From Oleiphilaceae bacterium (GTDB lineage: Bacteria; Pseudomonadota; Gammaproteobacteria; Pseudomonadales; Oleiphilaceae), in the NCBI GenBank assembly GCA_041591755.1, contig JBFHRI010000001.1, forward strand, positions 1 through 49,698: a DNA stretch of 49,698 nucleotides. The letters run 5' to 3'. The notes under the pieces were generated by a model that worked only from the letters and a program-made list of their open reading frames with translations, had not been told where the DNA came from and searched no databases. Each line of letters opens with the position of its first letter. Position 1 is the stretch's first letter. This document shows, one piece after another, positions 3,977 through 49,067 of the stretch. Position numbers and translations under genes: made by a program.

Positions 3977-4342
3977 ATGCGTGATCTGGTAGTGGTCGAT
4001 CAGCTCGTGGTTGCAGCGAGCATCGGGGTATTCGACTGGGAGAAGAAAATTCTACAAAGCGTCATGATCAGCCTCGAGTTGGAGCATGATTGTGAGCGCG
4101 CCGGTCAAACCGATGATTTGGCGGATGCGTTGGATTACGCTGCGGTTTGTCATAGTGTGCAGCAGGTCGCCAACCGCGCGCATTTTGAGTTATTGGAGTC
4201 TCTCGCTGCATGTATCATCGACCACTTGTTTAACGCGTATCCAGCGCTGCAAGGCGTGCGAATTCGTATCGACAAACCAGGCGCTGTGCCTGCTGCGCGT
4301 TCGGTTGCGATCATATTGTACCGGTCGCGTCGACCTGAGTGA
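3977..4342 (+). CDS. folB: dihydroneopterin aldolase
   Basis: 121 aa. FolB-like size and pattern (IGVFDWEK..., DYAAV...). It sits immediately upstream of an HPPK gene. Confidence 0.8.
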   Translation: MRDLVVVDQLVVAASIGVFDWEKKILQSVMISLELEHDCERAGQTDDLADALDYAAVCHSVQQVANRAHFELLESLAACIIDHLFNAYPALQGVRIRIDKPGAVPAARSVAIILYRSRRPE

Positions 4343-4349
4343 GTGCGCT

Positions 4350-4859
4350 ATGACAGAAGTTTTTCTTAGCCTGGGCAGTAATATCAACCGCGAAAACAAT
4401 ATTCGCGCTGCAGTGACTGCCTTGCGCAGGCTGTTGTCGAATGTGCGTTGTTCCAGTGTTTATGAAAGTGAGGCCGTAGGCTTTAAGGGCGATAACTTCT
4501 ATAACTTGGTGGTACAGGCGCAGACAGATCTAACCCTGCCCGAGTTAAGCGCGCAGTTAAAACAGATCGAAGACGCGCAAGGTCGCGAGCGCGGTGGACC
4601 AAGGTTCAGCGGGCGCACCCTGGATATAGATATTATTTTATATGGGGATTATGTCGGGCAGTTTGCAGGGATCGAGCTGCCGCGGCCTGAGCTGTATGCC
4701 AATGCGTTCGTGCTTCTGCCGCTGGCTGAGTTGACCCCGAAGCAACTAGATCCAGCAACTGGCCAGTGCTTTGAGTCGCTATGGCATCATGCCAAGATCC
4801 AACAGCGGCTATGGGTCGTGCCGTTTGCTTTCGACGGTCTTCCTGCGAACCACTCCTGA
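4350..4859 (+). CDS. folK: 2-amino-4-hydroxy-6-hydroxymethyldihydropteridine diphosphokinase (HPPK), second copy
   Basis: 169 aa from ATG 4350. This ATG is in frame within ORF 4086-4859, and the upstream extension overlaps folB. Motifs: LSLGSNI, SSVYESEAVG, RTLDIDIILYG. Confidence 0.8.
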   Translation: MTEVFLSLGSNINRENNIRAAVTALRRLLSNVRCSSVYESEAVGFKGDNFYNLVVQAQTDLTLPELSAQLKQIEDAQGRERGGPRFSGRTLDIDIILYGDYVGQFAGIELPRPELYANAFVLLPLAELTPKQLDPATGQCFESLWHHAKIQQRLWVVPFAFDGLPANHS

Positions 4860-6503
4860 TTAGTCCAGCTTGCCTTTGCGAAAACGCGCAATCAGTTCTC
4901 GCGTCGAGCAATCAAATTCATCTAAGGCTGAGTCATCCAGCAAGTGTTTAAAGATTTGCTCACCCAAGACTTTGCCAAGTTCGACGCCCCATTGGTCGAA
5001 CGAGTCGAGGTGCCACAAAATACCCTGTACAAACACCTTATGTTCGTAGAGTGCGATCAACGCACCCAAGGTAGACGGATTCAAGATCTCAACGACCAGT
5101 GTGGTGCTTGGTTTGTTGCCCGGAATAACTTTATGCGGTGCTAAGGCGACCGCTTCTTCGGCGCTCATGCCTTTGGCGAGTAACTCAGCGGTGGCCTCGG
5201 CCTCGGTCTTACCTAGCATCAAGGCCTGCGTTTGACTCAAGCAATTGGCGACCAGGTAGGCATGGTGATTGGACACGGGATTCGTGGAGCGCAGCGCGAT
5301 GATGAAATCGGCTGGAATCAATCGTGTTCCCTGATGCAGTAGCTGATGGTAGGCGTGCTGCCCGTTGCTCCCGACCCCGCCCCAAATGATGGGGCCGCTT
5401 TGATAACTGAGGGTGAGGCCATCACGATCGACCCCTTTGCCGTTACTTTCCATATCAAGCTGTTGCAGGTGGGCGGTGAAATTAGCCAGATAGTGATCGT
5501 AGGGCAATACCGCATGCGATTGCGCATCAAAAAAATTGTTATACCAAAGGCCTAAGAGCGCCAACACCACCGGAATGTTTTGCGCAAATGGCGCTTCCCG
5601 AAAGTGTTGATCCATGGCTTCTGCACCTTGTAATAGCGCCTCAAAATGCTCATAGCCCAACATGAATGCGATAGGTAGACCAATTGCCGACCACAGGGAG
5701 TAACGTCCACCCACCCAGTCCCACATTGGCAGGCAATTATCAGCCGTGATACCAAAGGCTTCGGCGGCTGCTACATTCGCTGTGACTGCGTAAAAGTGTT
5801 GAGCCAGCGCTTCTTCTGGCATCCCTTGTTGGTACATCCAGGCGCGTGCGACGCGTGCATTCTCTAGGGTTTCAAGGGTGCTGAAAGATTTTGTCTGGAG
5901 CAAAAACAGCGTGGTCTCAGGGTTAATCTGTCGCAGGACTTCGGTCACGTCGCTACCATCAATATTGGCGACAAAGTGACAACGCAATCCGGGTTTGGCA
6001 AACGGAGTCAAGGCTTCCAAGGCGGCTTTTGGGCCCAAGTAAGAGCCGCCTATGCCAATGCTTACCAGGGTATCGATCTGACGGCCGGAGAAGCCTTTAT
6101 GCTGACCTGAGTGGATGCGTTCAACCAGTTGCCTCATGCGCTGTTGCGTGGCACGAATTTCTGGAATGACATCGACGCCACCGACATAGATGGGACGGCC
6201 CGTTGACTGCCGCAACGCGGTATGCAAAGCAGGTCGTTGTTCGGTGTTGTTAAGCGGCGCACCTTCGAACAGGTCGTGGATCGCTCGCGACAACTCTTGC
6301 TCGTTGGCCAGCGTTAGCAATTCCTGCATGACGGCATCATCAATCAGGTGCTTACTAAAATCGACATAAATCTGCGCAGCCTGTAATGAAAAACGTTTAT
6401 CTCGATCGCCTTCATGGCGAAAAAGCTCCTTGATATGAGTATGTCGCATGCGCTCAGCCTGCGTGCGCAAGCGGCTGTAGCTCGAAGTCTGGTCAAGGCG
6501 CAT
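4860..6503 (-). CDS. pgi: glucose-6-phosphate isomerase
   Basis: 547 aa. GIGGSYLGP, GGRYSLWSAIG and other PGI signature segments. Convergent with folK, with abutting stop codons. Confidence 0.95.
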   Translation of the reverse strand: MRLDQTSSYSRLRTQAERMRHTHIKELFRHEGDRDKRFSLQAAQIYVDFSKHLIDDAVMQELLTLANEQELSRAIHDLFEGAPLNNTEQRPALHTALRQSTGRPIYVGGVDVIPEIRATQQRMRQLVERIHSGQHKGFSGRQIDTLVSIGIGGSYLGPKAALEALTPFAKPGLRCHFVANIDGSDVTEVLRQINPETTLFLLQTKSFSTLETLENARVARAWMYQQGMPEEALAQHFYAVTANVAAAEAFGITADNCLPMWDWVGGRYSLWSAIGLPIAFMLGYEHFEALLQGAEAMDQHFREAPFAQNIPVVLALLGLWYNNFFDAQSHAVLPYDHYLANFTAHLQQLDMESNGKGVDRDGLTLSYQSGPIIWGGVGSNGQHAYHQLLHQGTRLIPADFIIALRSTNPVSNHHAYLVANCLSQTQALMLGKTEAEATAELLAKGMSAEEAVALAPHKVIPGNKPSTTLVVEILNPSTLGALIALYEHKVFVQGILWHLDSFDQWGVELGKVLGEQIFKHLLDDSALDEFDCSTRELIARFRKGKLD

Positions 6504-6574
6504 CGGCTCTCCCTGCTAAAGTGTTTTAGAAAATGGATGGGGCCGAGTGGCGGCGCAGCACATGGGCAAGTTTC

Positions 6575-8336: not shown

Positions 8337-8834
8337 TCAAAGTCGTTTCAGTTGATGCGTCAGGCATGCAGCGGCGTGGTCGGCTAAGTATGAACCGTCG
8401 GGCAAGCGCCAATTTGGGCAAATCTCAAGAGCGGGAATGACCACGAAATCTCGGCTCAGGGCGTGAGGATGAGGAATGCTGAGGTCTGGATCAAAATGAC
8501 GTATGGTTTGACGGCCGTAGAACAGGATATCCAAATCGATTACGCGCTCGCCCCAATGTCGAGTTTTGATACGGCCCGATGTGGCTTCGATTTGTTGCAG
8601 AGCCAACAATAGCTGAAGAGGTGAAAGGGTCGTATCCATCTGCACGACGGCGTTACAAAAATCGGGTTGGTCTTGAGGGCCCTGTGGTGCGCTGGTGTAA
8701 AGCGAAGAGCAGGCCTGCAGAGTGGAGTCTGGAAGCGAAGCCAGACGCACCAATACCGTTTTGACTTGTTGAATGGGATCGTCCAGATTGCTACCGACCC
8801 CAATCAGCACCGGGAGCGGTCGTTGGCCTGTCAT
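8337..8834 (-). CDS. folK: 2-amino-4-hydroxy-6-hydroxymethyldihydropteridine diphosphokinase (HPPK)
   Basis: 165 aa. GVGSNLDDP, SSLYTSAPQGPQDQPDF and RVIDLDILFYG motifs. Its start overlaps the pcnB stop by 4 nt. Confidence 0.9.
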   Translation of the reverse strand: MTGQRPLPVLIGVGSNLDDPIQQVKTVLVRLASLPDSTLQACSSLYTSAPQGPQDQPDFCNAVVQMDTTLSPLQLLLALQQIEATSGRIKTRHWGERVIDLDILFYGRQTIRHFDPDLSIPHPHALSRDFVVIPALEICPNWRLPDGSYLADHAAACLTHQLKRL

Positions 8835-10132
8835 GACCGAGCTCTGGGGCGCCTGCGGGGGCGACGTTGGGGACTCGGGCGATCAGACTCGGGCTCTGGA
8901 TTGTGCCGCTCGACTGCGGGATGTTGCTCTTGGAACTTGGTCCACCAGATTCCTAATCCGTCCAGGTCTTCACCACTTTCTTCGCGTAATAGAAGAAAAT
9001 CGTAGGCCGCACGGAATTTTGGTAAAGCCAAGGTTTGCAGGGGTTTCTTCCCCTCGATACGAAGCAGCCGCGCTTGAATACTCCAGATATCCCGGATCGT
9101 CATCAAAAAGCGTTTGGGAATGGTAATGATCTGCCCTTGCTGGTTCACCACGTGCTGAGCGACGCGATCATGAAGCTCAGCTTCACTCAGCTTGGATTTG
9201 TGCTGAGCGAGTTGTGCTTCTTGCAATTCTGGCCACATTAAAACGGCATAGATAAAGGCGGGCGTGACGGGTTTATCTTGTCGGATTCGCTCTTGCGTAT
9301 TGGTCAGTGCTTTGACGATTAACTGATAATAGCGTTCGCTCTGCGGGCTTTTTTGCAGCACTTGATGCAGACCCGGAAACAGGTGGGCAAACAGACCGAA
9401 CTGTCGTAGCAAGGCCAGGGCCTCCGGACCCCCTTCATGGACCAACACCTTAATGACTTCATCAAACAAGCGTGCAGCGGACACATTTCGGATCAACGGC
9501 GCCAGTCGGTAGATCGCTTGCTCGGTCTGAGCCTCCATCTTGAGCCCCAATTTGCTGGCAAAGCGTATCGCGCGTAGCATGCGAACGGGGTCCTCGCGAT
9601 AACGCGTTTCAGGGTCTCCAATCAGACGTAGGGTGCGTGTCTTGATATCGGGCAGCGCTCCGACATAATCGTAGATCGCAAAATCTTTCGGATTGTAATA
9701 CAGGGCATTGATGGTGAAGTCGCGTCTGATGGCGTCGTCTTCGATGCTGCCATAAACGTTATCACGTAACAGCATGCCATGTTCCGCATGCCGCGAGAGC
9801 GCGCTGTTATCGTCAGATTCAGAGCTGGCGCGAAAGGTCGCGACCTCAATCACGTCGCGCCCAAATAGAATATGGACCAGTTTGAAGCGGCGCCCAATCA
9901 AACGCGCGTTGGAAAAAAGACGTTTGACTTGTTCCGGTGTAGCGCTGGTTGCCACATCAAAATCTTTAGGACGTGCTCCCAACAGTAAATCGCGTACACA
10001 ACCGCCGACCAAATAAGCTTCATAACCGTTTTCTTGTAAACGGTAGGCGACCTTTAGCGCCAAAGTCGATAGGAACTTGCGCGATACTGGATGTTCGTCA
10101 CGGGGGATGATAGTCAAACTTGCGTGCGTCAT
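8831..10132 (-). CDS. pcnB: poly(A) polymerase I
   Basis: 433 aa. GGCVRDLLLG...DFDV nucleotidyltransferase motif of the CCA/poly(A) polymerase family and an Arg-rich C-terminal tail. pcnB-folK-panBC order. Confidence 0.9.
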   Translation of the reverse strand: MTHASLTIIPRDEHPVSRKFLSTLALKVAYRLQENGYEAYLVGGCVRDLLLGARPKDFDVATSATPEQVKRLFSNARLIGRRFKLVHILFGRDVIEVATFRASSESDDNSALSRHAEHGMLLRDNVYGSIEDDAIRRDFTINALYYNPKDFAIYDYVGALPDIKTRTLRLIGDPETRYREDPVRMLRAIRFASKLGLKMEAQTEQAIYRLAPLIRNVSAARLFDEVIKVLVHEGGPEALALLRQFGLFAHLFPGLHQVLQKSPQSERYYQLIVKALTNTQERIRQDKPVTPAFIYAVLMWPELQEAQLAQHKSKLSEAELHDRVAQHVVNQQGQIITIPKRFLMTIRDIWSIQARLLRIEGKKPLQTLALPKFRAAYDFLLLREESGEDLDGLGIWWTKFQEQHPAVERHNPEPESDRPSPQRRPRRRPRARS

Positions 10133-10344
10133 GGGTTTAGGAAGCAGCCACCAGTCTTAGAAAAAATGCGGTTGAAAAGTGCGCGGCAAGTGTAACGCGT
10201 TCCCTTTAGAAACACTAATCTGAGCGCGTGGCGGTGGCGTCAGTTGCTAGCCTTTTATTAGTGCTCAGTCAATGCAAACGTGCCGGGCTTTACTCAATTC
10301 AAGCCTGACAAAATTAGGGTGAAAAACTTTGGTTGGGGAAAGTA

Positions 10345-10960
10345 AGAAATGACGATGCATGAAAAGCGCAAAACCTTTCCGTTTTTGAGCTTTTCATGCC
10401 GAACGTTCAGACCATCAATTGTTGTTGTTGTTATTCCGTGTCACCGAGTGCGCTGCATATAAGGACAACGCAAGCAAGCGGATAAAATTTAGATGCACTG
10501 AGCAACATAAGCAGACAGCGACGCTTTGAACCGAATGTGCTACTTTCGTAGTTCTTTTCTATTTCGGTACAGCTATCGAATCTTTTATTGCCAACTATCG
10601 CTAAAAAGCTAAGCGTCCAAAAATTACCGTTTGCCCCGCTTTTTTTATTTTTATTTTTCGCGGTGATTCATCACTGACGACATCTATTTTTATTTTTGTT
10701 TTTTTAGTCTGCGATGTTTTGTTGTTTTGTAACGATATAAGAGCATTTGATATACCAAACTGTAATTTTTCTTTAATAAACATAGGGGTAGGAATTTACG
10801 CTACGCCTTTTGGACTATTCATAGAACTCGTCGGCATTAAAAACGTGAAAACACGCACACTTGTGTTTCCAGAGGTAACATTGGGTAACGTTCCATGCCC
10901 GTTTCCGTAGCGTTGGAAACAAGCACCCGCTTGGTGATTGGTGAATTTGTGACGTACATC
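10345..10960 (-). ncRNA. candidate CrcZ-like A-rich (Hfq/Crc-titrating) sRNA
   Basis: An 870-bp gap with no credible ORF lies between the cbrB-like gene and pcnB. A sigma-54 promoter sits at its upstream end. The minus strand carries A-rich ARN-type blocks: AACAACAA within ACAAAACAACAAAACA (10713-10734), AAAAAAACAAAAATAAAAATA (10685-10707), AAAAATAAAAATAAAAAAA (10640-10660) and AATAACAACAACAACAA (10417-10437). A long hairpin at 10357-10399 follows. Both ends are approximate. Confidence 0.45.
10357..10399 (-). terminator. long hairpin, possible 3' end of the candidate sRNA
   Basis: GCATGAAAAGC ... GCTTTTCATGC forms an 11-bp perfect stem with an inner CAAAA/TTTTG extension. On the minus strand it is followed by the moderately U-rich tract AUCGUCAUUUCUUACUUU. 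It is not a canonical U-run terminator. Confidence 0.35.
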
Positions 10961-10971
10961 ACGATTTTACT

Positions 10972-10987
10972 AGCGAATGTCATGCCA
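10972..10987 (-). promoter_or_regulatory. sigma-54 (-24/-12) promoter
   Basis: The minus strand reads TGGCAT-GACAT-TCGCT against the consensus TGGCAC-N5-TTGCW. The GG and GC dinucleotides are correctly spaced. It lies about 17 nt after the stop codon of the sigma-54 activator gene and points into the AT-rich gap. Confidence 0.6.
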
Positions 10988-11003
10988 GCGAGAGTAAACA
11001 GGC

Positions 11004-12383
11004 TTATTTTTTACGTGGAATGCCTAGGCGTTGGCGCCGCTCCCAAAGACTTTTGCGGCTGATGCCAAGCCGTTTAGCGAGTTCCGTTTCACTCATACGA
11101 TCCTGATTTTCCAACACAAACTGCTGAAAATAGTCTTCCATTGAGAGTGCGCGATTGGTTTGCGGCGGATTGGGGTTATAGGCAGAGGATTGATGAGGTG
11201 TAATCAGACCTTGCGGTATATTGATATCGTCAACTTCATACTCGATGTCCAGTAGATCAGGTGTAATGACTTCATCGTCCGCCAGAATGATGCCGCGTTC
11301 AATGGCGTTTTCGAGTTCCCGTACGTTGCCTGGCCAATGATAGTCGCTGATTAATTTCATGGCTTCCGGGCTGAATTTGATTTCTCGACGATTAAATTTG
11401 CGGGCGGTTTTCTCTAACAGCATTTGTGCCAGGCCAATAATATCGTTACCGCGTTCCCGCAAAGGTGGCAGCTTCAAAGTAATGACATTCAAACGATAAT
11501 ACAGGTCTTCACGAAACTGGCCGGTGCGCGCCAGCGCTTTAAGGTTACGATGGGTCGCCGCGATCATTCGCACATCGACGCGCTTGGATTGCGTGGAACC
11601 TACGCGCCGTATTTCACCTTCTTGCAGCACGCGTAACAGGCGTGCCTGTGCATCCAATGGAAGCTCACCAATCTCATCCAGGAATAGCGTGCCTCCATCC
11701 GCAGCCTCGATAACCCCGGTACGAGATTGAATGGCGCCGGTGAAGGAGCCTTTCTCATGACCGAATAGCTCGGACTCGATTAAGGTTTCCGGAATCGCAG
11801 CACAGTTGATGGCCAGGTAGTTTTTCTGTCGTCGTTGGCTCAGTTGATGAATGGCGCGTGCGGCCAGCTCTTTACCGCTTCCGGTTTCGCCTTGAATCAG
11901 GACGGTGGCATCTGTGGGGGCCGTTTTACGCATCAGTGTGAAGACTTTTTTCATGGCCGGGCAGCGCCCGTAAATCAGCTGTTGGATCTGCGCTTCAGCC
12001 TGCTTTTCACTCAGCTCGGCTTCGTCTTTGGCTTCGGGCTGGCTAATGATGTTGCTAATGATTTCAAGGATATCGGCTTGATCGAAAGGCTTTGCAATAT
12101 AGTCGACTGCACCAAGCTTCATGGCGTCAACCGCAGAGCGCAACCCAGCGTAACTAGTCATCACCAAGACCGGGACGCCTTGTGCGAGTTGAATAATATC
12201 GGTGCCGGGCTGGCCGGGCAGGCGCAAGTCGGTGATGATCAGATCGAAGGCGGGAAGAGGATGGTTTTCGATCGCTTCAGCGACGGATGCAACATCTTCG
12301 ACGAGATAGCGTTGCTCTTCCAAAGTCGCTTTGAGTTTGGCCCGACTGGTGGCGTCGTCTTCAATGACCAGAATGCGTGGCAT
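11004..12383 (-). CDS. sigma-54-dependent response regulator (NtrC family, CbrB-like)
   Basis: 459 aa. Receiver domain ([11 protein letters not shown]). AAA+ domain with Walker A GETGSGKE, a GSFTGA loop (GAFTGA variant) and the ELFGHEKG region. C-terminal HTH ([12 protein letters not shown]). It occupies the position of cbrB in Pseudomonas between gluQ/cbrA and pcnB. Confidence 0.85.
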
Positions 12384-12458
12384 GCAAGGGCTCTATCTGT
12401 AATGGGCTCATGGGCATTGGCGATGACTAACGATGATGTCGACCGCCGTGGTTGGCAT

Positions 12459-12731
12459 TTAAGGAACCTCTGATTCATTCCCTGCGGCCTCTGGCCTCCA
12501 GGAATTTTTGCTGGCGAGGCGCGCGACTAAGCCATACTGGTGGTCTGGCACAGGAGCGTAACAAAGCTCAGCGAGAATTCCTGGAGGCCCCGAAGGGCGC
12601 GGCCTGAGAGGCTCCAGCACTGCGTTGAACTGCTTGCCAGGGTCAACCAGCCCTGGACTGCGCAGCTCGCCTTGTTCTGAAGCCTCTCAGATTGCGCAGA
12701 GACCACAGGGAATGAATCAGAGGTTCCTTAA
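12459..12731. repeat. 273-bp element bounded by 26-bp perfect terminal inverted repeats (MITE-like or structured RNA)
   Basis: TTAAGGAACCTCTGATTCATTCCCTG at 12459-12484 has an exact reverse complement at 12706-12731. Nested inverted repeats: GGCCTCCAGGAATT (12493-12506 / 12576-12589) and CTGAGAGGC (12604-12612 / 12682-12690). On the minus strand GCCC-UUCG-GGGC lies at 12587-12598. Confidence 0.7.
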
Positions 12732-12757
12732 TAGCCTCGATAATAACGAACTGTATT

Positions 12758-29644: not shown

Positions 29645-29998
29645 ATGAGTGTGGTAGATTCGTTTGTTCCGACCCCCTTGGTATTTACCGATGCGGCGGC
29701 GGCCAAAGTCAAAGAGTTGGTGGAAGATGAGGGTAACCCTGATCTCAAGTTACGGGTCTATGTGACTGGTGGTGGTTGCTCCGGGTTCCAGTATGGCTTC
29801 ACCTTTGACGAGGAGTTGGCCGAGGATGACACGGTGATTAGCAACCAGGGCGTCAATCTAGTGGTGGACCCTATGAGCTACCAATATCTGGTCGGCGCCA
29901 CGGTGGACTACCAGGAAGGTCTTAAAGGCGCCCAATTCTCGGTGAGCAACCCGAATGCCACGTCCACTTGTGGCTGTGGATCTTCGTTCTCGATCTAA
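29645..29998 (+). CDS. erpA: iron-sulfur cluster insertion protein ErpA
   Basis: 117 aa HesB/IscA family protein. GGGCSGFQY and C-terminal CGCGSSFSI. Confidence 0.9.
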
Positions 29999-32935: not shown

Positions 32936-34615
32936 ATGGCGTTGACGCAGTCCGAGCAGAAAAAATTTGCCCAGGCCAGTATCGAGAGCATGTATCGGGT
33001 CTTTACAGTGCCCGAGGCGCCATCGTCGACACTGGCGCGTATCGACCGAGACATTTCCGCTAACCTGGCGGGATTTCTCCAAGATCACATCGTGGCGGTC
33101 GAGCATGATCTGCAGGCGATGGAGAAAGATTTTTCCGATTCCCGCATTCCCGAGAAACCTATTTTCGTTTCTGAGCACACCCAATTCGTGCTGGACAAAC
33201 TGGTTTCGCGTTCGGTTCACACGGCCTCGCCCAGCTTCGTCGGGCACATGACTTCGGCCTTACCCTATTTTATGTTGCCTTTGTCCAAGATCATGATTGC
33301 CCTCAATCAGAATCTGGTCAAAACCGAAACCTCCAAGGCCTTTACGCCCTTGGAGCGTCAGGTCAGCGGGATGTTACATCGCCTGGTATACAACCAGGAT
33401 GACGATTTCTATGCGCGTTGGATGCACAATGCAGAGTATTCGCTGGGCGCTGTGTGTTCGGGTGGTACGATTGCGAACATCACGGCCCTTTGGGCAGCGC
33501 GTAATCTTTGCTTGCCGGCAGAAGGGCAGTTTCGGGGTGTGGCGCATGATGGCCTGTTCCGCGCCCTGCAATATTATGGCTATGAGGGCGCTGCGATCGT
33601 GGTGTCCAAGCGGGGTCATTATTCCCTGCGCAAGGCTGCAGATTTGTTAGGGATCGGCCGCAGTAATCTGGTCGCCATTCCAACTGACGATAATAATCGT
33701 ATCGATCTGGATGCTTTGCGTGCTGTCTGTGAGGATCTGCAACAACGTAAGATCTGCATTCTTGGTATTGTCGGGATTGCCGGCACGACCGAAACAGGTA
33801 GTGTCGACCCCTTGGACGAAATGGCGGAGATCGCACGACAGTTCAAGGCGCATTTTCATGTCGATGCCGCTTGGGGCGGCCCCACCTTGTTCTCCAATAC
33901 CTATAAACATTTGCTCAAGGGCATTGAAAAAGCGGATTCGGTGACACTGGATGCGCACAAGCAGCTTTATGTGCCGATGGGCTGTGGCATGGTCTTGTTT
34001 AAAGATCCGGCCAAACTCAAAGCGATTGAACACCACGCACAGTATGTGATTCGTCAGGGTTCCAAGGATTTGGGTGCCACCACGCTCGAGGGTTCACGTC
34101 CAGGCATGGCCATGTTGGTACATTCCGGGTTGAAAATCATTGCCCGCGAAGGTTATGAGATTCTGATTGATCAGGGCATCGAAAAAGCACGTGACTTTGC
34201 CACGATGCTGGACCAGCAATCCGATTTTGAGGTCATTTCCTATCCCGAGTTAAATATCCTGACCTATCGCTATCGTCCTGCTTACGCAGCGGCGGCGCTG
34301 GCGGAAGCCGATCAACACCAGATGGACCGCATCAACGAGGTCTTGGATCGAGTGACCAAGGCCATTCAAAAGACACAGCGTGAGAAGGGCTTGTCGTTTG
34401 TCTCGCGTACCCGCTTGGAGCCGCTGAAATATGGTGGCCGACCCTGCGTGGTGTTTCGTGTGGTCTTGGCGAACCCGCTGACCACGCGTGAGATTCTGCA
34501 GGACATTCTCAAAGAGCAGCGCGAAATCGCCGAACACGATGAAGGATTGCGCAGCGCGATGCGCCAATTGCAAAGTGTGTGTGCTAAAACCAAACAGCGT
34601 GCTGCTGGGGCGTGA
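32936..34615 (+). CDS. group II PLP-dependent decarboxylase, possibly PanP-type aspartate 1-decarboxylase
   Basis: 559 aa. HMTSALPYF, SGGTIANITALWAAR and DAHKQLYVPMGCG (PLP lysine) motifs. The size and N-terminal region recall the putative pyridoxal-dependent aspartate 1-decarboxylase family. Confidence 0.8.
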   Translation: MALTQSEQKKFAQASIESMYRVFTVPEAPSSTLARIDRDISANLAGFLQDHIVAVEHDLQAMEKDFSDSRIPEKPIFVSEHTQFVLDKLVSRSVHTASPSFVGHMTSALPYFMLPLSKIMIALNQNLVKTETSKAFTPLERQVSGMLHRLVYNQDDDFYARWMHNAEYSLGAVCSGGTIANITALWAARNLCLPAEGQFRGVAHDGLFRALQYYGYEGAAIVVSKRGHYSLRKAADLLGIGRSNLVAIPTDDNNRIDLDALRAVCEDLQQRKICILGIVGIAGTTETGSVDPLDEMAEIARQFKAHFHVDAAWGGPTLFSNTYKHLLKGIEKADSVTLDAHKQLYVPMGCGMVLFKDPAKLKAIEHHAQYVIRQGSKDLGATTLEGSRPGMAMLVHSGLKIIAREGYEILIDQGIEKARDFATMLDQQSDFEVISYPELNILTYRYRPAYAAAALAEADQHQMDRINEVLDRVTKAIQKTQREKGLSFVSRTRLEPLKYGGRPCVVFRVVLANPLTTREILQDILKEQREIAEHDEGLRSAMRQLQSVCAKTKQRAAGA

Positions 34616-38315: not shown

Positions 38316-39359
38316 ATGAGTGATCCCGTCTCCAACATTCGCTTAACCCAATTCAGCCACGGCGCTGGCTGCGGCTGTAAGATTTCTCCGGCCGTGCTCG
38401 ACGTGATTCTCGCCGGCAGTGGTGCCCAACATCTTGATCCACGACTCTGGGTGGGGAATGCCTCGCGCGATGATGCAGCGGTCTATGCGCTGGATGATGA
38501 ACGCGGCGTGATTTCCACGACCGATTTTTTTATGCCGATCGTGGATGACCCTTTTGATTTTGGTCGTATAGCGGCAACCAACGCAATCAGTGATGTTTAC
38601 GCGATGGGCGGCACGCCCTTAATGGCGATCGCCATTCTCGGTTGGCCGGTGAACCAGCTAGCGCCTGAATTGGCGCGTGAAGTTGTGCGCGGTGGACGCG
38701 CCGTATGTGATGCGGCCGGTATTCCGCTAGCCGGCGGCCACTCGATTGATGCGCCAGAGCCGATCTTTGGGTTAGCGGTGACCGGTGAGGTGAAACGCGC
38801 CCATATCAAACGCAACGATACCGCGCAGGTGGGCGCACGCCTGTTCCTAACTAAGCCGCTGGGCATCGGTATTTTGACCACCGCCGAGAAGCGCGGCGTG
38901 CTGCGCGCGCAGGACATCGGTCGGGCCCGGGATTTGATGTGTACCTTGAATCGTGTCGGGAGCCGTTTTGGTGAGTTGTCCGGAGTTCAGGCGATGACCG
39001 ATGTCACCGGTTTCGGTTTGGCCGGTCACCTGGTTGAAATGGCCGACGGCAGCGGCCTGACGGCGCGCCTCGATTTTACAGCGGTGCCGTGCATTGCGGG
39101 CGTGGAGCATTATCTTGCCTTGGGCTGTGTTCCCGGCGGCACCGAGCGCAACTATGCCAGTTATGGTGAGCGCTTGGCGCCGCTTACACCATCGCAAAAA
39201 CAGCTGCTGTGTGATCCACAAACCAGTGGAGGCTTGCTAGTGGCGGTAGCGCCTGAAGAATGCGCGCATTTTCTGGATGTGGCACTGAGTGCCGGCGTCG
39301 AGGCGATCGAAATTGGTGAAATGTGCGCACGCTCCAGTTACGCGGTGGAGCTTGCCTAA
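38316..39359 (+). CDS. selD: selenide, water dikinase (selenophosphate synthetase)
   Basis: 347 aa. N-terminal [11 protein letters not shown] glycine-rich loop (Cys form, no in-frame UGA) and PurM-like fold motifs. Confidence 0.95.
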
Positions 39360-40486
39360 TGAGTCAACGACGCGACAACAGTGCCGATTATCGACACCTG
39401 TTTCTCAATGATGTCCCGCTGTTCGATGTCCGCGCGCCGGTCGAATTTCGCAAAGGGGCCTTCCCCAATGCCACGAATTTACCCTTAATGAATGATTTAG
39501 AACGGCAGCGCGTCGGCACCTGCTATAAAAACCAGGGCCAGCAGGCGGCCATTGCGCTTGGCCACCAATTGGTCAGCGGCGACATTAAGCAGCGGCGTAT
39601 CGAAGCGTGGGTTCAGTTTGCCCGTAATCATCCTGAGGGTTACTTGTATTGTTTTCGCGGGGGGCTGCGTTCGCAGTTGAGCCAAAAATGGCTCGAGACC
39701 GAGGGCGGTATTGCCTATCCTCGTGTTTTAGGTGGCTATAAAGCCATGCGCAGCTTTTTGCTTGAGGAGCTGGAAAAAGCCGTGCACGAGTGTCAGTTTT
39801 TATTGGTCGGCGGACTCACCGGCTGCGGTAAAACCGAAGTCCTCGAAGCGCTCGACAATGCCATTGATCTTGAAAAGCTCGCCAATCATCGCGGCTCCAG
39901 TTTTGGTAAACACGCTTCGCCGCAGCCGGGTCAGATCGACTTCGAGAACGCGTTGGCCATCGAGTTTTTGAAACGGCGTGCCCGCGCTCAAAACAAGTTT
40001 GTGTTAGAGGACGAAGCGCGCATCATTGGGAGTTGTGCCATACCCTTGCCGCTGTTCAATGCCATGAAGCAGATGCCGCTGATTTGGCTGGAGGACAGCT
40101 TGGAGCGGCGGGTCGAGCGCATCCTGCAAGCTTACGTCATTGAGTTGCGTGACGAGTTTATCGCCGAGCAGGGAGAGGTGCGGGGGCAGGCGGCCTTCGC
40201 GGATCGATTGTTGCAAAGCCTGGCTAATATCGTAAAACGTTTGGGGGGCGAGCGTTATCAGCGCCTCAATGCCTGGATGAACGAAGCGCTTGAGGAGCAA
40301 CAGCGTAATGGCAATGTCGCGCGCCATCGCGTCTGGATTGAAGCCTTGCTGACGGAATACTACGACCCGATGTATGCCTATCAACGCGAACAAAAAGCGC
40401 AACGCATTGTGTTTTCAGGGCACCATGCACAAGTGGTCGATTATTTGCGCTCGCGCAGCACGCAGCCACCACAGCACGCGTACTGA
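39359..40486 (+). CDS. selU: tRNA 2-selenouridine synthase
   Basis: 375 aa from ATG 39359, overlapping the selD stop (TAATG). Rhodanese region [29 protein letters not shown] cysteine loop and P-loop GGLTGCGKT. Confidence 0.9.
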
Positions 40487-40607
40487 GAAGATCAGAATGC
40501 AGTACTGGGACTGCGTCTCAATTTGCGTATAATCGGCTAACTGTTGCGGGTCTGAGCCCGAGACAGGCAATCACTCGTCTTTTCCGCTATTGAACCGGAG
40601 AATTCCC

Positions 40608-41459
40608 ATGCTCAAACGTCTTATGGCGTGCTTCGCCATGGCTGTCATTTCACTTTTTTCTACGCTTAATCATGCCGAATCCGTGCTCCGCGTTTCGGCC
40701 ATTCCGGATGAGGCTCCGACCGAGTTGCTACGTAAATTTGCGCCCCTAGGCGCTTACCTGGAGCAGCAACTGGGCATGAAGGTGCAGTTTGTACCGGTCA
40801 CCGACTATGCTGCCGTGGTCGAAGCGCTGGCCGCTGACCGCGTCGACTTAGCCTGGTTGGGAGGCTTCACCTTTGTTCAGGCGCGCCTTAAGACGGGTGA
40901 TGCGATTCCCCTGGTCCAGCGTGAACAGGATCGTCAATTCACCAGCAAAATTATTAGCGCCGATCCGGCCGTTAAATCACTGCAAGACTTAAAGGGTAAG
41001 AGCTTTGCTTTTGGCTCGGTCTCTTCGACTTCGGGTAGCCTGATGCCGCGTTACTTTATGCAGCAGGACGGCATCGTGCCCGAACAGTTCTTCAGTCGCG
41101 TGGCTTATTCCGGTGCGCATGATGCGACCGCCGCGTGGGTCGAAGCCGGCAAGGCCGACGGCGGTGTGTTGAACGCCTCGGTCTGGGATAAGCTGGTCAG
41201 CGAAGGCAAGGTTGATGTGAACAAAGTCAAAGTGATTGCAACCACGCCGCCGTATTTCGATTACAACTGGACGGTACGTGGGAAGCTCGACGCCGATTTA
41301 ATCAGCAAGATCAAGGCGGCATTTCTGGCGCTCGACCCGGCGCAGCCCGCGCACAAAGAGATTCTGGATTTACAACGTGCCAGCCGCTTTATCGAAACCG
41401 ACGTGGTGAACTATAGCTCGATCGAAGCCGCAGCACGCGACGTAGGTCTGTTGCAATAG
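40608..41459 (+). CDS. PhnD-family ABC substrate-binding protein (putative selenate/oxyanion binding)
   Basis: 283 aa from ATG 40608, with GGAGA 6 nt upstream. Signal peptide. PhnD-like motifs (VSAIPDE, DLAWLGG, FGSVSSTSG). It lies immediately downstream of selD-selU. Confidence 0.75.
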   Translation: MLKRLMACFAMAVISLFSTLNHAESVLRVSAIPDEAPTELLRKFAPLGAYLEQQLGMKVQFVPVTDYAAVVEALAADRVDLAWLGGFTFVQARLKTGDAIPLVQREQDRQFTSKIISADPAVKSLQDLKGKSFAFGSVSSTSGSLMPRYFMQQDGIVPEQFFSRVAYSGAHDATAAWVEAGKADGGVLNASVWDKLVSEGKVDVNKVKVIATTPPYFDYNWTVRGKLDADLISKIKAAFLALDPAQPAHKEILDLQRASRFIETDVVNYSSIEAAARDVGLLQ

Positions 41460-42280
41460 TGTCTGTAGCCGCGTCGAAGCGCCTTGCCTTGCGGGGCGTT
41501 TCTCTGTCATATGCCGCACAATGGGCGCTCAACGATATTGCGTTTGCTGTAGCCCCGGGCGAGTCGGTGGCGATTATCGGGCCTTCCGGTGCAGGCAAGA
41601 CCTCCCTGTTGCGTCTGTTAGCGACCGCCCTGCAACCGCAACAGGGCGAACTGCACTTGCTTGGCCAGCAACCCTGGCGCATGAGCGCTAGCGCACGGCA
41701 AGGTTTGCGTGCGCGCATCGGACTGATCCATCAGACCCCCCCTTTGCCACCCCGTCAGCGCGTGGTCACGGCCATCGCGGCCGGGCGGCTGGGGCAGTGG
41801 TCATTGTTGCGCAGTGTATTAAATCTGGCCCACCCTTTGGACGCCCCGGGCATCGCGGCCGCTTTAGGTCGCTTTGATCTGGCGCATCGTCTCTATGCGC
41901 GTTGCCATGAGCTTTCCGGGGGGGAGCAGCAACGGGTCGGCATTGCGCGTGTCTTATATCAAGCGCCGGAGCTGATTCTGGCGGATGAGCCGGTATCGGC
42001 CTTGGATCCGGTGTTGGCTGATCACACGTTGGCCGTTTTGCAGCGCGAAGTGCAACAGCGGAATCTTAGCTTAGTGGCCAGCCTGCATGCGGTCGACCTG
42101 GCCTTGCGACATTTTCCGCGTATTATCGGCCTGCGTGCAGGACGCATCCTGTTCGACAAAGCCGCAGGCTGTGTCACTCAGGAGGATCTGGATCGGCTGT
42201 ATGCCAATACGCAGTTGCAGGTACAGCCCGAGCCGCAAGCCTCATCGCCGCGCCCAGTGCATTGTGGCGGGCTGGGCTAA
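41459..42280 (+). CDS. ABC transporter ATP-binding protein (PhnC-like)
   Basis: 273 aa, GTG start. Walker A GPSGAGKTS, signature LSGGEQQR and Walker B LILADEP. Confidence 0.85.
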   Translation: MSVAASKRLALRGVSLSYAAQWALNDIAFAVAPGESVAIIGPSGAGKTSLLRLLATALQPQQGELHLLGQQPWRMSASARQGLRARIGLIHQTPPLPPRQRVVTAIAAGRLGQWSLLRSVLNLAHPLDAPGIAAALGRFDLAHRLYARCHELSGGEQQRVGIARVLYQAPELILADEPVSALDPVLADHTLAVLQREVQQRNLSLVASLHAVDLALRHFPRIIGLRAGRILFDKAAGCVTQEDLDRLYANTQLQVQPEPQASSPRPVHCGGLG

Positions 42281-42292
42281 GGCGTCCTGCTC

Positions 42293-43900
42293 ATGACGCA
42301 AAGACTGACGCGCACGGTGTTGCAACAGCGCGATCCAGCGGCGCTACCGCGCCTACTGATCAGTGTCTTGGCCATTGCCTTGCTTTGGCCAGGCTTGCAC
42401 TACAGTGAGCTCGATCTCGCAGTGCTGTTCGATAGCGAGGCCAATCGCGCGATGCGTCATCTGGCCGCGACTTTTTGGCCTCCTGCTTATACCGGTGATT
42501 TCCTGTCCCTGTTGCTGCGCGCCACCGCGGAAACCCTGGCGATCGCCATCACGGGCATGGCGCTCGCCCTGTTACTGGCGTTTCCCGCCTCTTTATTGGC
42601 CAGCCGCGCCCTCTCGCGCTCAGCACTGCACCGCCAAGGCCGCCCCTCAATCTTGGGGCGCTGCTTGCGTTGGCCGCTGCGTTTGCTCTTAATTATCTTG
42701 CGCTCCGTGCCCGAAATTGTCTGGGCGCTGCTGTTTGTGCGTGCGGTGGGGCTGGGGCCGACCGCGGGCGTGTTAGCGATCGCGATTACCTATAGTGGCA
42801 TGTTGGGCAAGGTGTATGCCGAAATCTATGAGTCGGTGGATCGTCGGCCGGCACAGGCCCTCATGGGCGCCGGTGCCTCGCGTCTGACGGCATTTCTATA
42901 TGGCATTTTGCCAAACGCTGCAAGCGAGATGATTTCGTATACGGTCTATCGTTGGGAATGCGCGATACGGGCTTCGGTGGTCATGGGCTTTGTCGGCGCC
43001 GGCGGCTTGGGCCAGCAGATGGAATTATCACTGCGCATGTTTGCCGGCGGTGAAGTACTCAGTTTTCTGTGCATGTTTTTGCTTTTGGTATTGCTAGCCG
43101 ACCAATTGAGTCGTTTTTTGCGTTGGCAGCTGGTCGCGCGAGCGCGGCCTCGCGGTTTACCCGTCGCACTCGCCGCCGGGTTCTTGGTCGTCGTGGCATG
43201 GCAGTTTCTAGGTCTGGATCTCGGTGGCCTCGGTGCCACCGAATCTTGGCAACAAATGGCGCGGTTTGCGCAGCCCTTCTTCAGCCCTGATCTATCGCTT
43301 TCACAGTTAAGTCGCTTGAGTCAGGCGGCCCTCGAAACCCTCGCCATGTCGGCGGTCGGCACCCTGCTTGCCGCGGTTTGCGGGTTACTCGTGGCCATTC
43401 CCGCGGCCGGACGACTTGGCTGGCCGGCCCAGCACGTGGCGCGCCTGCTCTTAAATAGCCTACGCGCGGTGCCGGAACTGGTGTGGGCGGCGCTGATGGT
43501 GCTGGCGGCCGGACTGGGCCCGAACGCGGGGACCTTGGCCCTGGCCTTACATACCACCGGCGTTTTGGGCCGGCTCTTTGCCGAGGCGCTGGAAAACACG
43601 CCTGCCACGCCTGCGCGCGCGATACGGCTGGCCGGAGGCAGCCGCCTGGACGCCTTTTGCTATGGCACCCTGCCGGGGCTTTGGCCGCAGCTATTGGCCT
43701 ATACCTTGTATCGTTGGGAAAACAATATTCGGATGTCCAGCATCCTCGGTTTTGTTGGCGCGGGAGGTCTCGGACAGATGCTCTATGTGCATTTGAGTTT
43801 GTTTCAGAGTGCTCAGGCGGCCAGCGTTATTTTGGTGATGTTGCTTTTGGTCATGCTGGTGGATGGGATGAGCCAGGCGCTGCGAAGTAAAGCGATCTAG
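42293..43900 (+). CDS. ABC transporter permease, tandem-fused PhnE-like
   Basis: 535 aa with two homologous halves. Each half has a PhnE-type pattern: ...SVPEIVWALLFV...GVLAIA... and ...AVPELVWAALMV...GTLALA... Confidence 0.8.
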   Translation: MTQRLTRTVLQQRDPAALPRLLISVLAIALLWPGLHYSELDLAVLFDSEANRAMRHLAATFWPPAYTGDFLSLLLRATAETLAIAITGMALALLLAFPASLLASRALSRSALHRQGRPSILGRCLRWPLRLLLIILRSVPEIVWALLFVRAVGLGPTAGVLAIAITYSGMLGKVYAEIYESVDRRPAQALMGAGASRLTAFLYGILPNAASEMISYTVYRWECAIRASVVMGFVGAGGLGQQMELSLRMFAGGEVLSFLCMFLLLVLLADQLSRFLRWQLVARARPRGLPVALAAGFLVVVAWQFLGLDLGGLGATESWQQMARFAQPFFSPDLSLSQLSRLSQAALETLAMSAVGTLLAAVCGLLVAIPAAGRLGWPAQHVARLLLNSLRAVPELVWAALMVLAAGLGPNAGTLALALHTTGVLGRLFAEALENTPATPARAIRLAGGSRLDAFCYGTLPGLWPQLLAYTLYRWENNIRMSSILGFVGAGGLGQMLYVHLSLFQSAQAASVILVMLLLVMLVDGMSQALRSKAI

Positions 43901-43965: not shown

Positions 43966-44841
43966 TCAATGCCGACTCGTGGCGGGCCTGGCTTTGGTGC
44001 TTGTCGGAAGATGGGCCAGCAAACGGCTGGGCTGTCCATCAGCCGAGACAAATTTACCCGCTGCAAAGCTTGGCAGGTAATGTGCGTTGAGCAGGTGGCC
44101 CGCGGCCTTGTAATAAAATTTACGGCCGGAAAATGCCTCGGGATTATCGGCAATACCAATGCGCGCGACGAAGTCGTCGCTGTGGTAGAAATGCTCGGCG
44201 TAAATTTGTGGTAGGTCCATCTCGGTGGCCGCACTAGCGAAGGTGTAAACCTCGAGTTTGTTGAGCAGACGAGCGCGACTGCCGATCAATTCCTGCACCA
44301 GCTTTTTCAGCGCACCGGTGGTGATGATGCCGCCTTGGGAATGCGCGATCAGCACCACTTTTTTATGTTTTTCGAGGGCCTCCTTGAGAATAGAGGCGAC
44401 GCTGCTTTCTAAAGTCGAAATCGGCTGCATCGTGCGACCGACCATACACTCGAGTAAATCCAAGAACATGCCATCCGAAGGGTTGTGCATCAGATGGATG
44501 CGGCGTTGGAACCGGTCCGCCAGGGCTTTACCATTGAGGCGCAGCACGTTGCGGTCGGTACAAATGCCGTTAAGAAAAAACCAGGCCTGACCATCGTCGA
44601 TCGCCGCGCCTGCGGCAGGCACCTCGTAGGGAAGATGCGGTACTTCTCGGAACGGCGCGAATATCGGCAGCATGGTGGCGACCATGGCATGGGTAAACTG
44701 TTGCGCCGATTCATAATTGCCGGGATTACATTCCGACCAGGGTGCACCTTGTTCCAGCGGGGAAAGGACATGCGGCAGGTAGGGCAAATTCTTGATCACA
44801 GTTTGGGCGCGTTGCAGGGCACGGGTTAGCATAAGGGTCAC
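43966..44841 (-). CDS. alpha/beta-fold serine hydrolase (lipase/esterase-like)
   Basis: 291 aa. Nucleophile elbow VVLIAHSQGG (GxSxG type), preceded by an FFLNGI...HNPSDG segment. Last gene of the five-gene operon. Confidence 0.6.
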   Translation of the reverse strand: MTLMLTRALQRAQTVIKNLPYLPHVLSPLEQGAPWSECNPGNYESAQQFTHAMVATMLPIFAPFREVPHLPYEVPAAGAAIDDGQAWFFLNGICTDRNVLRLNGKALADRFQRRIHLMHNPSDGMFLDLLECMVGRTMQPISTLESSVASILKEALEKHKKVVLIAHSQGGIITTGALKKLVQELIGSRARLLNKLEVYTFASAATEMDLPQIYAEHFYHSDDFVARIGIADNPEAFSGRKFYYKAAGHLLNAHYLPSFAAGKFVSADGQPSRLLAHLPTSTKARPATSRH

Positions 44842-44898
44842 ACTCCGATAAAGATGGAACGAGTTGTCGTTGTTTTAGCGTTCCCTGCACGAGCCGAC

Positions 44899-46164
44899 TC
44901 ATCTTATTGATTGAGTATTTGTTTTTTGTTTGCGGTTTACCCGGCGCATGGACTCAGTGGTCTTTGGGGGCGAGCCGGCAAATTGTTCCGAGCCATCCGG
45001 CTCAATATGTTTCTCGCCGTTGATGTGTTGTCGCATCATGGCTGTGGCTTGATAAATCGTTTTGCGGGCGCGGTTCTGATTTCCCAAGGGGCGGTGTTCG
45101 GCCAGTGTGTGCCAGGGATTAAACGTAAGGTTGCGCGCAAAAGCGTCTTGCGCCGGATAGTTAAAACGTTGCGCTTCGATGGTCAATGTGGCGATCGGGA
45201 TAAACGGTGATTCCTTCTCGTTCCAGACGACAGAAGCATCTTCAATCGGCATCAAGACCGGATCGGTTTGCAATTGGATGGCGATATCGAACACCACGGA
45301 CTGCTTGCTAAGCGTCTGGATCATCGCTTCACGCAAATAGTTATCAGACAGCGGCCCGACTTTAGAGGGCTGTTCGACACGCGGCAAAAACGCATATTTC
45401 ACGGCGCGATTCTGGCCATTCAACTGTCCAAACAAGTAGGGCACGCAACTGTAATAGTTCAACTCCAGCGGGTTAGCATGCAGACGTGCATACAGTCCCT
45501 GCATGACCAAGTCTAGGTAATGCGAGTCGAAAGGATTGAGAAAATACCACGCGGGCGTGCCTTTGCCGATTTGGCGTTGTAGCTTAAGGTTTTCCTGTAC
45601 GTTCGGTGTGGTGAAGCTGGGTGAGCTGATGCCCAAAAAATCGACCGTGAACTGCTCATCGTCCAGTAGCTTTTTACCCGGCACACCCATCAGTTTAATG
45701 CCGATACTCAAAATGCCGTTGTCTCTGACATCGGGCACCACACGAGGGCCCGGTCCGCCAAAGCGCACATAGGCCGGATAACGCTTGCCTGGCTGAAACA
45801 GACCGACTTGGAGCTCACGAGGCAGATCAGGCAAAACCTCAAACTGCGCTTTGACCAAACCGTAGGTCTTGGTATTGCCGGCTCGTTCGGCCGTTTTCCC
45901 GGTGTCGGCATACTCTTTTTGCAAGAAACAGTTCATCGTCGTCGTGATGTGTTGGGTGATTGCGGCTTCGTTGGGTTGCAAGGTTTCTTCAGCCAGCAAT
46001 TGGCCATGATCTCGCAATCGCAGACGAATCAGTTTTTGGGTCAGGTGTTCGATCGGCGGGCGCAACCACTGATCAAAGGCGTCGCGGTAGTACGGCTCTA
46101 AACGACGGGCGACGCCGATGACAGTATTGGTACCACGCTCAACCAGTTGGGGTATCAAGTTCAT
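44899..46164 (-). CDS. catalase-fold heme protein (y4iL-like catalase family member)
   Basis: 421 aa from ATG 46164, with GGAG 8 nt upstream. GTG 46182 is an alternative start. ERAGNTKTYGLVKAQFEV aligns with catalase ERVVHAKGAGAFGYFEV. VRFGGPG...DVRDNG..GIKL aligns with RFS...D..RD.RGFA.KF. C-terminal FNPW...RPLGNQNRARKTIYQATAMMR resembles the proximal Tyr motif. Confidence 0.7.
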   Translation of the reverse strand: MNLIPQLVERGTNTVIGVARRLEPYYRDAFDQWLRPPIEHLTQKLIRLRLRDHGQLLAEETLQPNEAAITQHITTTMNCFLQKEYADTGKTAERAGNTKTYGLVKAQFEVLPDLPRELQVGLFQPGKRYPAYVRFGGPGPRVVPDVRDNGILSIGIKLMGVPGKKLLDDEQFTVDFLGISSPSFTTPNVQENLKLQRQIGKGTPAWYFLNPFDSHYLDLVMQGLYARLHANPLELNYYSCVPYLFGQLNGQNRAVKYAFLPRVEQPSKVGPLSDNYLREAMIQTLSKQSVVFDIAIQLQTDPVLMPIEDASVVWNEKESPFIPIATLTIEAQRFNYPAQDAFARNLTFNPWHTLAEHRPLGNQNRARKTIYQATAMMRQHINGEKHIEPDGSEQFAGSPPKTTESMRRVNRKQKTNTQSIR

Positions 46165-46202
46165 TTTGGGCTCCGGGGCCACTCATTGCCGACCAAGGGT
46201 GC

Positions 46203-47645: not shown

Positions 47646-47717
47646 GGGGGTAATCCTGTGTGAATAGCGTCCTGGGTTAAAAGTTACATGTCGTACGCTT
47701 TGGCTTATGCGGCACCC

Positions 47718-49049: not shown

Positions 49050-49067
49050 CGTCGCGTTCCTGCGGTA

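Follow-up and report, generated by a model that had tools for sequence, protein, structure and literature searches.

A probable remote orthologue of the small RNA CrcZ between cbrB and pcnB in an Oleiphilaceae bacterium

The DNA analysed here (the window) is a stretch of 49,698 nucleotides (nt) from an Oleiphilaceae bacterium, forming positions 1 to 49,698 of contig JBFHRI010000001.1. Within it, a gap of 871 base pairs (bp; 10133-11003) separates two minus-strand genes, a sigma-54-dependent response regulator gene and pcnB, and comparative analysis showed this gap to hold a predicted gene of about 386 nt on the minus strand that is conserved, structured and non-coding. We conclude that its product is a putative remote orthologue of CrcZ, outside the Rfam family as now delimited. 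That the gap carries a CrcZ-homologous small RNA (sRNA) gene driven by a conserved sigma-54 promoter is in our judgement very likely, and it is likely that this divergent orthologue also works by the CbrB-RpoN-Hfq sponge mechanism. An earlier note on this DNA, made from the letters alone, had pointed to an AT-rich gap without a credible open reading frame (ORF) at the crcZ locus, and both composition (41.8% G+C in the gap vs 54.4% in the whole window) and gene order agree with it: dksA-gluQ-regulator-gap-pcnB-folK-panB-panC-pgi is the Pseudomonas cbrB-crcZ-pcnB neighbourhood, with the RNA encoded between cbrB and pcnB and on the same strand. Nine contigs with regulators 69-75% identical to that of the window have the same synteny, with gaps of 730-880 bp, and gene calling left the corresponding gap empty in every relative. 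The sigma-54-driven, CrcZ-like, sponge-type RNA proposed in the note is upheld as to family, synteny and homology, and revised as to promoter and length; of the homologue and the analogue between which it hesitated, the evidence favours a true but remote homologue.

Two alignments define most of the results below. The gap alignment comprises eight distinct gaps (the window and seven relatives), and the RNA alignment, made with MAFFT, comprises 19 distinct full-length copies; profile searches were run with nhmmer, and the consensus fold was computed with RNAalifold. In the gap alignment the promoter is followed by a conserved block of about 390 nt, which holds all the A-rich stretches and ends in a hairpin and GTCATTT, after which the sequences become unalignable; in both alignments, conservation stops just past this 3' stem-loop. 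A hidden Markov model (HMM) built without the window sequence has a single match in the window, at 10340-10716 on the minus strand (E=4e-54). Scanning metagenome contigs with a motif from the RNA body yielded 20 further loci, and wherever flanks are present these have a homologue of the response regulator on one side and pcnB on the other. The 3' end was placed near 10345 because conservation ends there and because the Rfam CrcZ model ends at the corresponding position in a related locus of the window's clade (L081). In the Pseudomonas control (L001), CrcZ as defined by Rfam starts 12 nt past the end of the promoter 16-mer, and applying this spacing to the window puts the 5' end near 10730.

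The consensus fold of the RNA alignment contains 76 pairs in 10 helices, and 41 of these pairs show compensatory double changes. Standard pairs are formed by 93.2% of the cells, vs 85.8% after shuffling and 37-44% when the partners are slid by 1-3 columns, and the 41 pairs changed on both sides compare with 22.8 in shuffled alignments (none of 500 reached 41) and with 13-19 after sliding. The window RNA folded alone has a minimum free energy of -98.2 kcal/mol (z = -3.1), and helices 2, 7, 8, 9 and 10, together with the long-range helices 3 and 4, are common to this fold and the consensus. Helix 1 has compensatory changes at nine of nine pairs; its arms in the window, CATCGCAGAC and GTCAGTGATG, were taken from the sequence itself, since the MAFFT alignment is off by 1-2 nt for the window at this place, and they pair at 9 of 10 positions. 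Helix 10 is the conserved 3' stem-loop (95.9% paired, four pairs with compensatory changes), so that the hairpin described in the earlier note is indeed present, conserved and the 3' stem of the RNA.

Five conserved A-rich blocks (Table 1) stay unpaired in the consensus structure as well as when the window RNA is folded alone. Nine of the ten matches to AANAANAANAA in the whole window (49.7 kb, both strands) lie on the minus strand of the gap; the ten matches compare with an expectation of 1.8, and none of 100 shuffles reached ten. Similarly, AANAANAA starts 15 times within the gap in the sense direction and never in the antisense direction. The A-rich blocks that had first been noticed on this strand are thus real and far above chance, and comparison of the gap across relatives found them conserved in position.

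Since the RNA lies upstream of pcnB on the same strand, and a 60-amino-acid ORF (10601-10783, minus strand) overlaps its 5' part, we considered whether there is no independent RNA gene at all, the conserved sequence belonging instead to pcnB as a long 5' leader or regulatory region, or being the gene of a small protein rich in Lys and Asn. The leader was rejected because conservation stops at the hairpin, the 212 nt from there to the pcnB start being unalignable. The small ORF was rejected on the substitutions, which track base-pairing and not codons, and on the alignment indels, which are not multiples of three. The lack of a called gene in the gap of every relative, and the fact that the same region of Pseudomonas is the experimentally known CrcZ, also speak against both forms of this explanation, which we hold to be hardly probable at all.

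The conserved sigma-54 promoter (Table 1) has invariant and correctly spaced GG and GC elements in 8/8 sequences of the gap alignment, and it occupies the same position in all 20 distinct upstream regions compared (the window and 19 others). No sigma-70-like promoter was found in a scan of 9900-11300. Upstream of the -24 element by about 110-135 nt stands the probable CbrB enhancer, composed of two direct TGTTAC-type subsites (TGTTACC in tandem) and GAAACA. The letters GTTACC, GTTACC and GAAAC (10865-10889) are invariant in the gap alignment, and the tandem GTTACC recurs in 19 of the 20 upstream regions at a fixed spacing to the promoter. CbrB subsites of the form TGTTAC/GTAACA were defined in P. 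putida by mutagenesis and binding assays (PMC6296734). The predicted RNA gene is accordingly preceded by a putative sigma-54 promoter of the GG-N10-GC type with candidate CbrB subsites upstream of it.

Two further DNA elements are conserved in the same region. A box between the enhancer and the promoter, TAGTCCAAAAGGCGTAG, was recovered with a strict pattern in 11 of the 20 relatives, and in many of them it is the right half of a 7-bp inverted repeat, CTAAGCC-N13-GGCTTAG, whose left arm is degenerate in the window; it lies about 70-100 nt upstream of the RNA start and is not an IHF consensus. A palindrome resembling CRP/Vfr sites is conserved in 18 of 20 clade members, always 74 nt upstream of the CbrB enhancer. 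The variants in its arms are non-compensatory, which fits binding by a protein better than a hairpin. Neither the palindrome nor the inverted-repeat box was seen at the clade spacing in Pseudomonas, in Hahellaceae or in the locus of the Oleiphilus sp. HI0009 type (L091).

The earlier note had taken another sigma-54-like motif, TGGCATGACATTCGCT (10972-10987, minus strand), which follows the regulator stop codon, as the start of an RNA of about 600 nt reaching to the 3' hairpin. The motif is present, with correct GG-N10-GC spacing and two mismatches to TGGCACGNNNNTTGCW. Moreover, part of the CrcZ of P. putida arises by read-through from cbrB followed by processing (PMC10832556), which makes transcripts over 10731-10960 conceivable. 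However, motifs matching this well are no more frequent than chance predicts (5 in the window vs 13.3 expected), and the motif falls within an alignment gap in 7/7 relatives, is absent from 19/19 other distinct upstream regions and has no TGTTAC/GTAACA subsite within 600 nt upstream. All Rfam and HMM alignments begin at the downstream promoter, and 10731-10960 contains DNA-type elements (palindrome, tandem GTTACC, box and promoter) at fixed spacing with unconserved sequence between them, an arrangement typical of a promoter region and not of an RNA. An RNA of 600 nt is therefore very unlikely, and the stretch 10731-10960 is regulatory DNA of the promoter. Given the conserved promoter, the start proposed earlier lies about 230 nt too far upstream; at about 386 nt the RNA is essentially of Pseudomonas CrcZ size, and the anomaly of length is gone. 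Elsewhere in the window, a second good sigma-54-like motif, TGGCATTCGGGTTGCT at 29945-29960 (minus strand), just past the 3' end of a tmcA-like gene and antisense to erpA, is probably a chance match.

Rfam at gathering thresholds has no match in the whole window, and its CrcZ model (RF01675), which gives 349.7 bits in the Pseudomonas control, has no match at gathering in Marinobacterium, Neptunomonas, Pseudohongiella, Cellvibrionales or the window's clade. Scanning 67 kb with 4,227 Rfam families at an E-value threshold revealed sub-threshold CrcZ matches in relatives that run end to end (model positions 1-398) and are the only matches with E<=1. These were found in a Hahellaceae metagenome-assembled genome (MAG) (50.1 bits, E=5e-10), Marinobacter confluentis (50.0 bits, E=5e-10), Alkalimarinus coralli (42.1 bits, E=1e-7), L081 of the window's clade (38.1 bits, E=1.7e-6, the model ending at a U-run equivalent to that of the window) and L091 (32.6 bits, E=7e-5). 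An HMM of Pseudomonas CrcZ matches Marinobacter over its full length (E=6e-12) and L081 (E=5e-6); conversely, an HMM of the window's clade matches Marinobacter (E=2e-15), Hahellaceae (E=7e-31) and Alkalimarinus (E=2e-40), and its matches in Pseudomonas are weak and colinear with the CrcZ start.

A common layout was found in every cbrB-pcnB gap examined (Pseudomonas, Marinobacterium, Neptunomonas, Pseudohongiella, a Cellvibrionales MAG, Hahellaceae, Alkalimarinus, Marinobacter and Oleiphilus), in which TGTTAC/GTAACA subsites are followed by a sigma-54 promoter and, about 30 nt on, by an A-rich stretch, with 8-22 AANAANAA starts in sense vs 0-3 in antisense. Two of the loci have features of their own. 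In an uncultured Marinobacterium (L009, 6372-7575) the cbrB-pcnB gap is 1,204 bp long and holds two tandem units of sigma-54 promoter and A-rich RNA, with promoters at gap positions 155 and 716 and matching AANAANAA blocks after each; this tandem duplication is reminiscent of CrcZ/CrcY, but within a single locus. In the control locus of Pseudomonas agronomica (L001), the stretch from the cbrB stop codon to the crcZ promoter contains a match to the Rfam P36 sRNA (6464-6524, 43.1 bits, which exceeds the gathering score) that overlaps the CbrB enhancer region.

The protein encoded upstream of the gap is an NtrC-type regulator with receiver, AAA+ and helix-turn-helix (HTH) domains. Along its whole length it shares 57-61% identity with the CbrB proteins of Pseudomonas, Marinobacterium and Neptunomonas encoded at syntenic loci, its receiver phospho-acceptor Asp is intact, and its C-terminal HTH hardly differs from that of Pseudomonas CbrB; on these grounds it is assigned as the CbrB orthologue of the window. 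Its closest relatives in the databases are metagenomic (75% identity), and the closest named ones (69-71%) belong to Oleiphilus sp. and Oleiphilaceae MAGs. By NCBIfam it falls in the NtrC class, under all equivalog cut-offs. The gene immediately upstream of cbrB is not cbrA, which was defined as encoding an SLC5-like transporter domain, PAS and a histidine kinase (about 985 amino acids). By tblastn, a full-length cbrA stands immediately upstream of cbrB in 38/38 orthologue loci of other lineages (Pseudomonas, Marinobacterium, Neptunomonas, Pseudohongiella, Cellvibrionales, Hahellaceae, Alkalimarinus and Marinobacter). Complete cbrX-cbrA-cbrB-RNA-pcnB loci occur in Marinobacter and Hahellaceae, where a cbrX-like ORF of 58 codons is also present; Alkalimarinus has the same layout with the cbrX ORF not called, and cbrA-cbrB-RNA loci were also found in Marinobacterium, Neptunomonas, Pseudohongiella and a Cellvibrionales MAG. 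The spacer between gluQ and the regulator gene of the window is unusually long (375 bp, 12384-12757). With cbrA missing from the locus, the kinase that feeds CbrB must either come from a gene elsewhere or be another protein altogether; the intact receiver Asp points to continued control of the regulator by some kinase.

In Pseudomonas, CrcZ is transcribed under the control of CbrB and RpoN, and its A-rich motifs bind Hfq with Crc, relieving repression (PMC4063720, PMC5113210, PMC10832556). By analogy, the window RNA is most likely an Hfq sponge, with or without Crc, and that it is one controlled by CbrB seems probable. On poor carbon sources, phosphorylated CbrB would bind the TGTTAC-type subsites and activate RpoN-RNA polymerase. 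The RNA would then accumulate, and its five unpaired (AAN)n blocks could each occupy the distal face of an Hfq hexamer, together with Crc if present; three of the five consist of 5-7 triplets, long enough to fill the hexamer. Hfq would in this way be titrated away from the A-rich sites that catabolic mRNAs carry at their ribosome-binding regions, and catabolite repression would be relieved.

Several observations weigh against this interpretation. Within its clade, the window copy has diverged furthest: the Rfam CrcZ model scores it at 10.5 bits (E=4, a partial match at 10498-10702, the gathering score being 95 bits), and at permissive thresholds Rfam gives only noise in the gap, this match included. 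Nor does comparing the window directly with Pseudomonas give a significant result, and the link to CrcZ is therefore transitive, through the relatives. The -24 element is TGGTAT and not TGGCAC. IHF binds between the CbrB enhancer and the promoter in P. putida (PMC6296734); a match to its consensus occurs at one fixed position in 12 of 20 relatives and is degenerate in the window. The 3' hairpin departs from the textbook form of an intrinsic terminator, and the terminator scan was silent on it because of its 17-nt loop and interrupted U-tract; the scan reported only two weak sites (10843-10871), which lie in the enhancer region and are not RNA ends. A CbrA query gave no tblastn match and no detectable remnant at the window or at any clade locus (L081-L089, L091 and L094-L113), and neither crc nor hfq was found in the 49.7-kb window, to which that search was limited. 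Expression of the RNA, its dependence on RpoN and CbrB, and its binding of Hfq are predicted.

Some of these points would fit a true CrcZ homologue that does not act through Crc or CbrA signalling, either as a pure Hfq sponge or under a different kinase and additional DNA-binding regulators that respond to a different physiological signal. The absence of cbrA from the locus throughout the clade, when it is present in every other lineage examined, is consistent with such a circuit, as are the two extra conserved DNA elements (the CRP-like palindrome in 18/20 and the inverted-repeat box) and the report of Crc only from Pseudomonas and close relatives (PMC10832556). On the other hand, the receiver Asp and the enhancer subsites are intact, as ordinary two-component control predicts, and cbrA may lie elsewhere in the genome: in a CbrA protein search aimed at Oleiphilus-type genomes, the matches listed were saturated by Marinobacter sequences. 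We regard this alternative as unlikely. In a broader form, which we put forward only tentatively, the whole CbrB-CrcZ module would have been rewired in the marine clade related to Oleiphilus, with CbrA lost rather than relocated and another sensor in its place, gating by a CRP/Vfr-type regulator at yGTGA-N6-TCwCA and a dimeric factor at the CTAAGCC-N13-GGCTTAG box, and a Crc-free sponge. If true, relatives of hydrocarbon-degrading specialists would possess a distinct circuit for carbon control.

Table 1. Positions of the predicted RNA gene, its parts and the elements and genes around it in the window
Feature	Position	Strand	Remarks
pcnB, poly(A) polymerase I	8831-10132	-	TIGR01942, 488 bits, above cut-off; downstream syntenic neighbour
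sRNA gene, probable divergent CrcZ orthologue, about 386 nt	10345-10730	-	Both ends estimated; may shift by a few nt
Conserved 3' stem-loop, 13-bp stem GCATGAAAAGCTC/GCGCTTTTCATGC, then GTCATTTC	10357-10399	-	Presumed terminator or 3' end
A-rich block 5, AATAACAACAACAACAA	10419-10435	-	Single-stranded
A-rich block 4, AAATAGAAAAGAAC	10551-10564	-	Single-stranded; AAGAAC invariant among homologues (RNA alignment)
Helix 2 (CCGC/GCGG)	10636-10663	-	Presents A-rich block 3 in its loop
A-rich block 3, AAAAATAAAAATAAAAA	10642-10658	-	Loop of helix 2
A-rich block 2, AAAAACAAAAATAAAAA	10687-10703	-	Loop of helix 1
A-rich block 1, ACAAAACAACAAAAC (contains AACAACAA)	10715-10729	-	5' end, unpaired
Conserved sigma-54 promoter, TGGTATATCAAATGCT	10742-10757	-	GG at -24, GC at -12; from gap alignment and upstream comparison
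Conserved box, TAGTCCAAAAGGCGTAG	10801-10817	-	Conserved in gap alignment; between enhancer and promoter
Probable CbrB enhancer (upstream activating sequence), GTTACC-N4-GTTACC-N4-GAAACA	10864-10889	-	Unique in the window, conserved
CRP/Vfr-like palindrome, CGTGATGTACGTCACA	10948-10963		Clade consensus yGTGA-N6-TCwCA; 40 nt past the regulator stop codon
Putative CbrB orthologue, NtrC-type sigma-54-dependent response regulator	11004-12383	-	Receiver, AAA+, HTH; assigned by identity and synteny

The CbrAB/CrcZ system has been described as exclusive to Pseudomonas and Azotobacter (PMC6296734, PMC8871633, PMC10832556), and Crc as found only in Pseudomonas and related groups (PMC10832556). In the literature searched for CrcZ together with Marinobacter, Oceanospirillales or Acinetobacter, no description of such homologues was found; the sRNA99 of A. 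baumannii is only likened to CrcZ, and one database record already gives a Marinobacter protein the name CbrA. The window RNA is an unannotated RNA of the CrcZ kind, which widens the taxonomic range of the system at a locus without cbrA; it extends a known mechanism and does not constitute a new one. The unit of cbrB, RNA and pcnB is widespread, occurring in Marinobacter, Hahellaceae, Alkalimarinus, Marinobacterium, Neptunomonas, Pseudohongiella, a Cellvibrionales MAG and the Oleiphilus relatives, and the current Rfam CrcZ model misses all of these non-Pseudomonas copies, so that the alignment offers a concrete seed for widening the family. In P. putida, alkane-degradation genes are repressed by Hfq/Crc, and the RNAs are candidates for regulating which substrates the marine relatives of oil-degrading bacteria prefer. 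With no cbrA next to its cbrB, the clade is also a natural test of what CbrB senses.

Other genes of the window were noted in passing. Two HPPK (folK) genes on opposite strands lie less than 4 kb apart (4086-4859, plus strand, and 8337-8834, minus strand), flanking pgi-panC-panB. The first is an ORF of 257 amino acids in which the HPPK domain covers only residues 92-218; its start may be miscalled, or it may overlap a 121-amino-acid ORF (3977-4342). A second HPPK gene adjoining folB is found in the relatives as well. About 25 kb from panB/panC, a PanP-type pyridoxal-dependent aspartate 1-decarboxylase (32936-34615, plus strand, 929 bits) stands in for the usual pyruvoyl-dependent PanD. A cluster for selenium use (38316-43900, plus strand) contains selD, mnmH (tRNA 2-selenouridine synthase) and a putative selenate ABC transporter, made up of a substrate-binding protein (TIGR04553), an ATPase and a fused PhnE-type permease. 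Five consecutive ORFs of 291, 427, 480, 443 and 192 amino acids at 43966-49646 (minus strand) have no Pfam or PADLOC match; the 480-amino-acid product belongs to the Dyp-type peroxidase family by NCBIfam (111.5 bits), and the other four were unmatched in every library tried.

Among known systems, the closest is CrcZ of Pseudomonas and Azotobacter (RF01675), with its paralogues CrcY and CrcX. The window RNA occupies the same slot between cbrB and pcnB on the same strand and belongs to the same size class (about 386 nt vs 398 model positions). It likewise has a sigma-54 promoter 12 nt upstream of its 5' end, TGTTAC-type subsites about 110-135 nt above the -24 element, a first A-rich motif at the 5' end, several unpaired blocks of AAN repeats and a 3' stem-loop, and its relatives give significant end-to-end matches to the CrcZ model. 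It differs in model score (10.5 bits for the window and 32-50 bits for the relatives, against a gathering score of 95) and in its enhancer, with two direct GTTACC and GAAACA where P. putida has F1-R1-R2 (PMC6296734). The TGGTAT -24 box, the non-adjacent cbrA, the extra conserved DNA elements upstream and the host, a marine gammaproteobacterium whose nearest named relatives at this locus are Oleiphilus and Oleiphilaceae, set it further apart. The putative CbrB resembles that of the CbrA/CbrB pair of Pseudomonadaceae in being full length, in its gluQ...pcnB neighbourhood, in its conserved HTH and in having the target promoter immediately downstream, whereas no cbrA accompanies cbrB at the locus in the window's clade. 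Finally, RsmY, RsmZ and CsrB, the sponges of CsrA/RsmA, are comparable as multi-motif RNAs driven by a two-component system that titrate a global RNA-binding translational regulator; no Rfam match to the Rsm/Csr families was found in the window, and the motifs of the window RNA are AAN repeats, ligands of the Hfq distal face, in contrast to the GGA loops of those RNAs.

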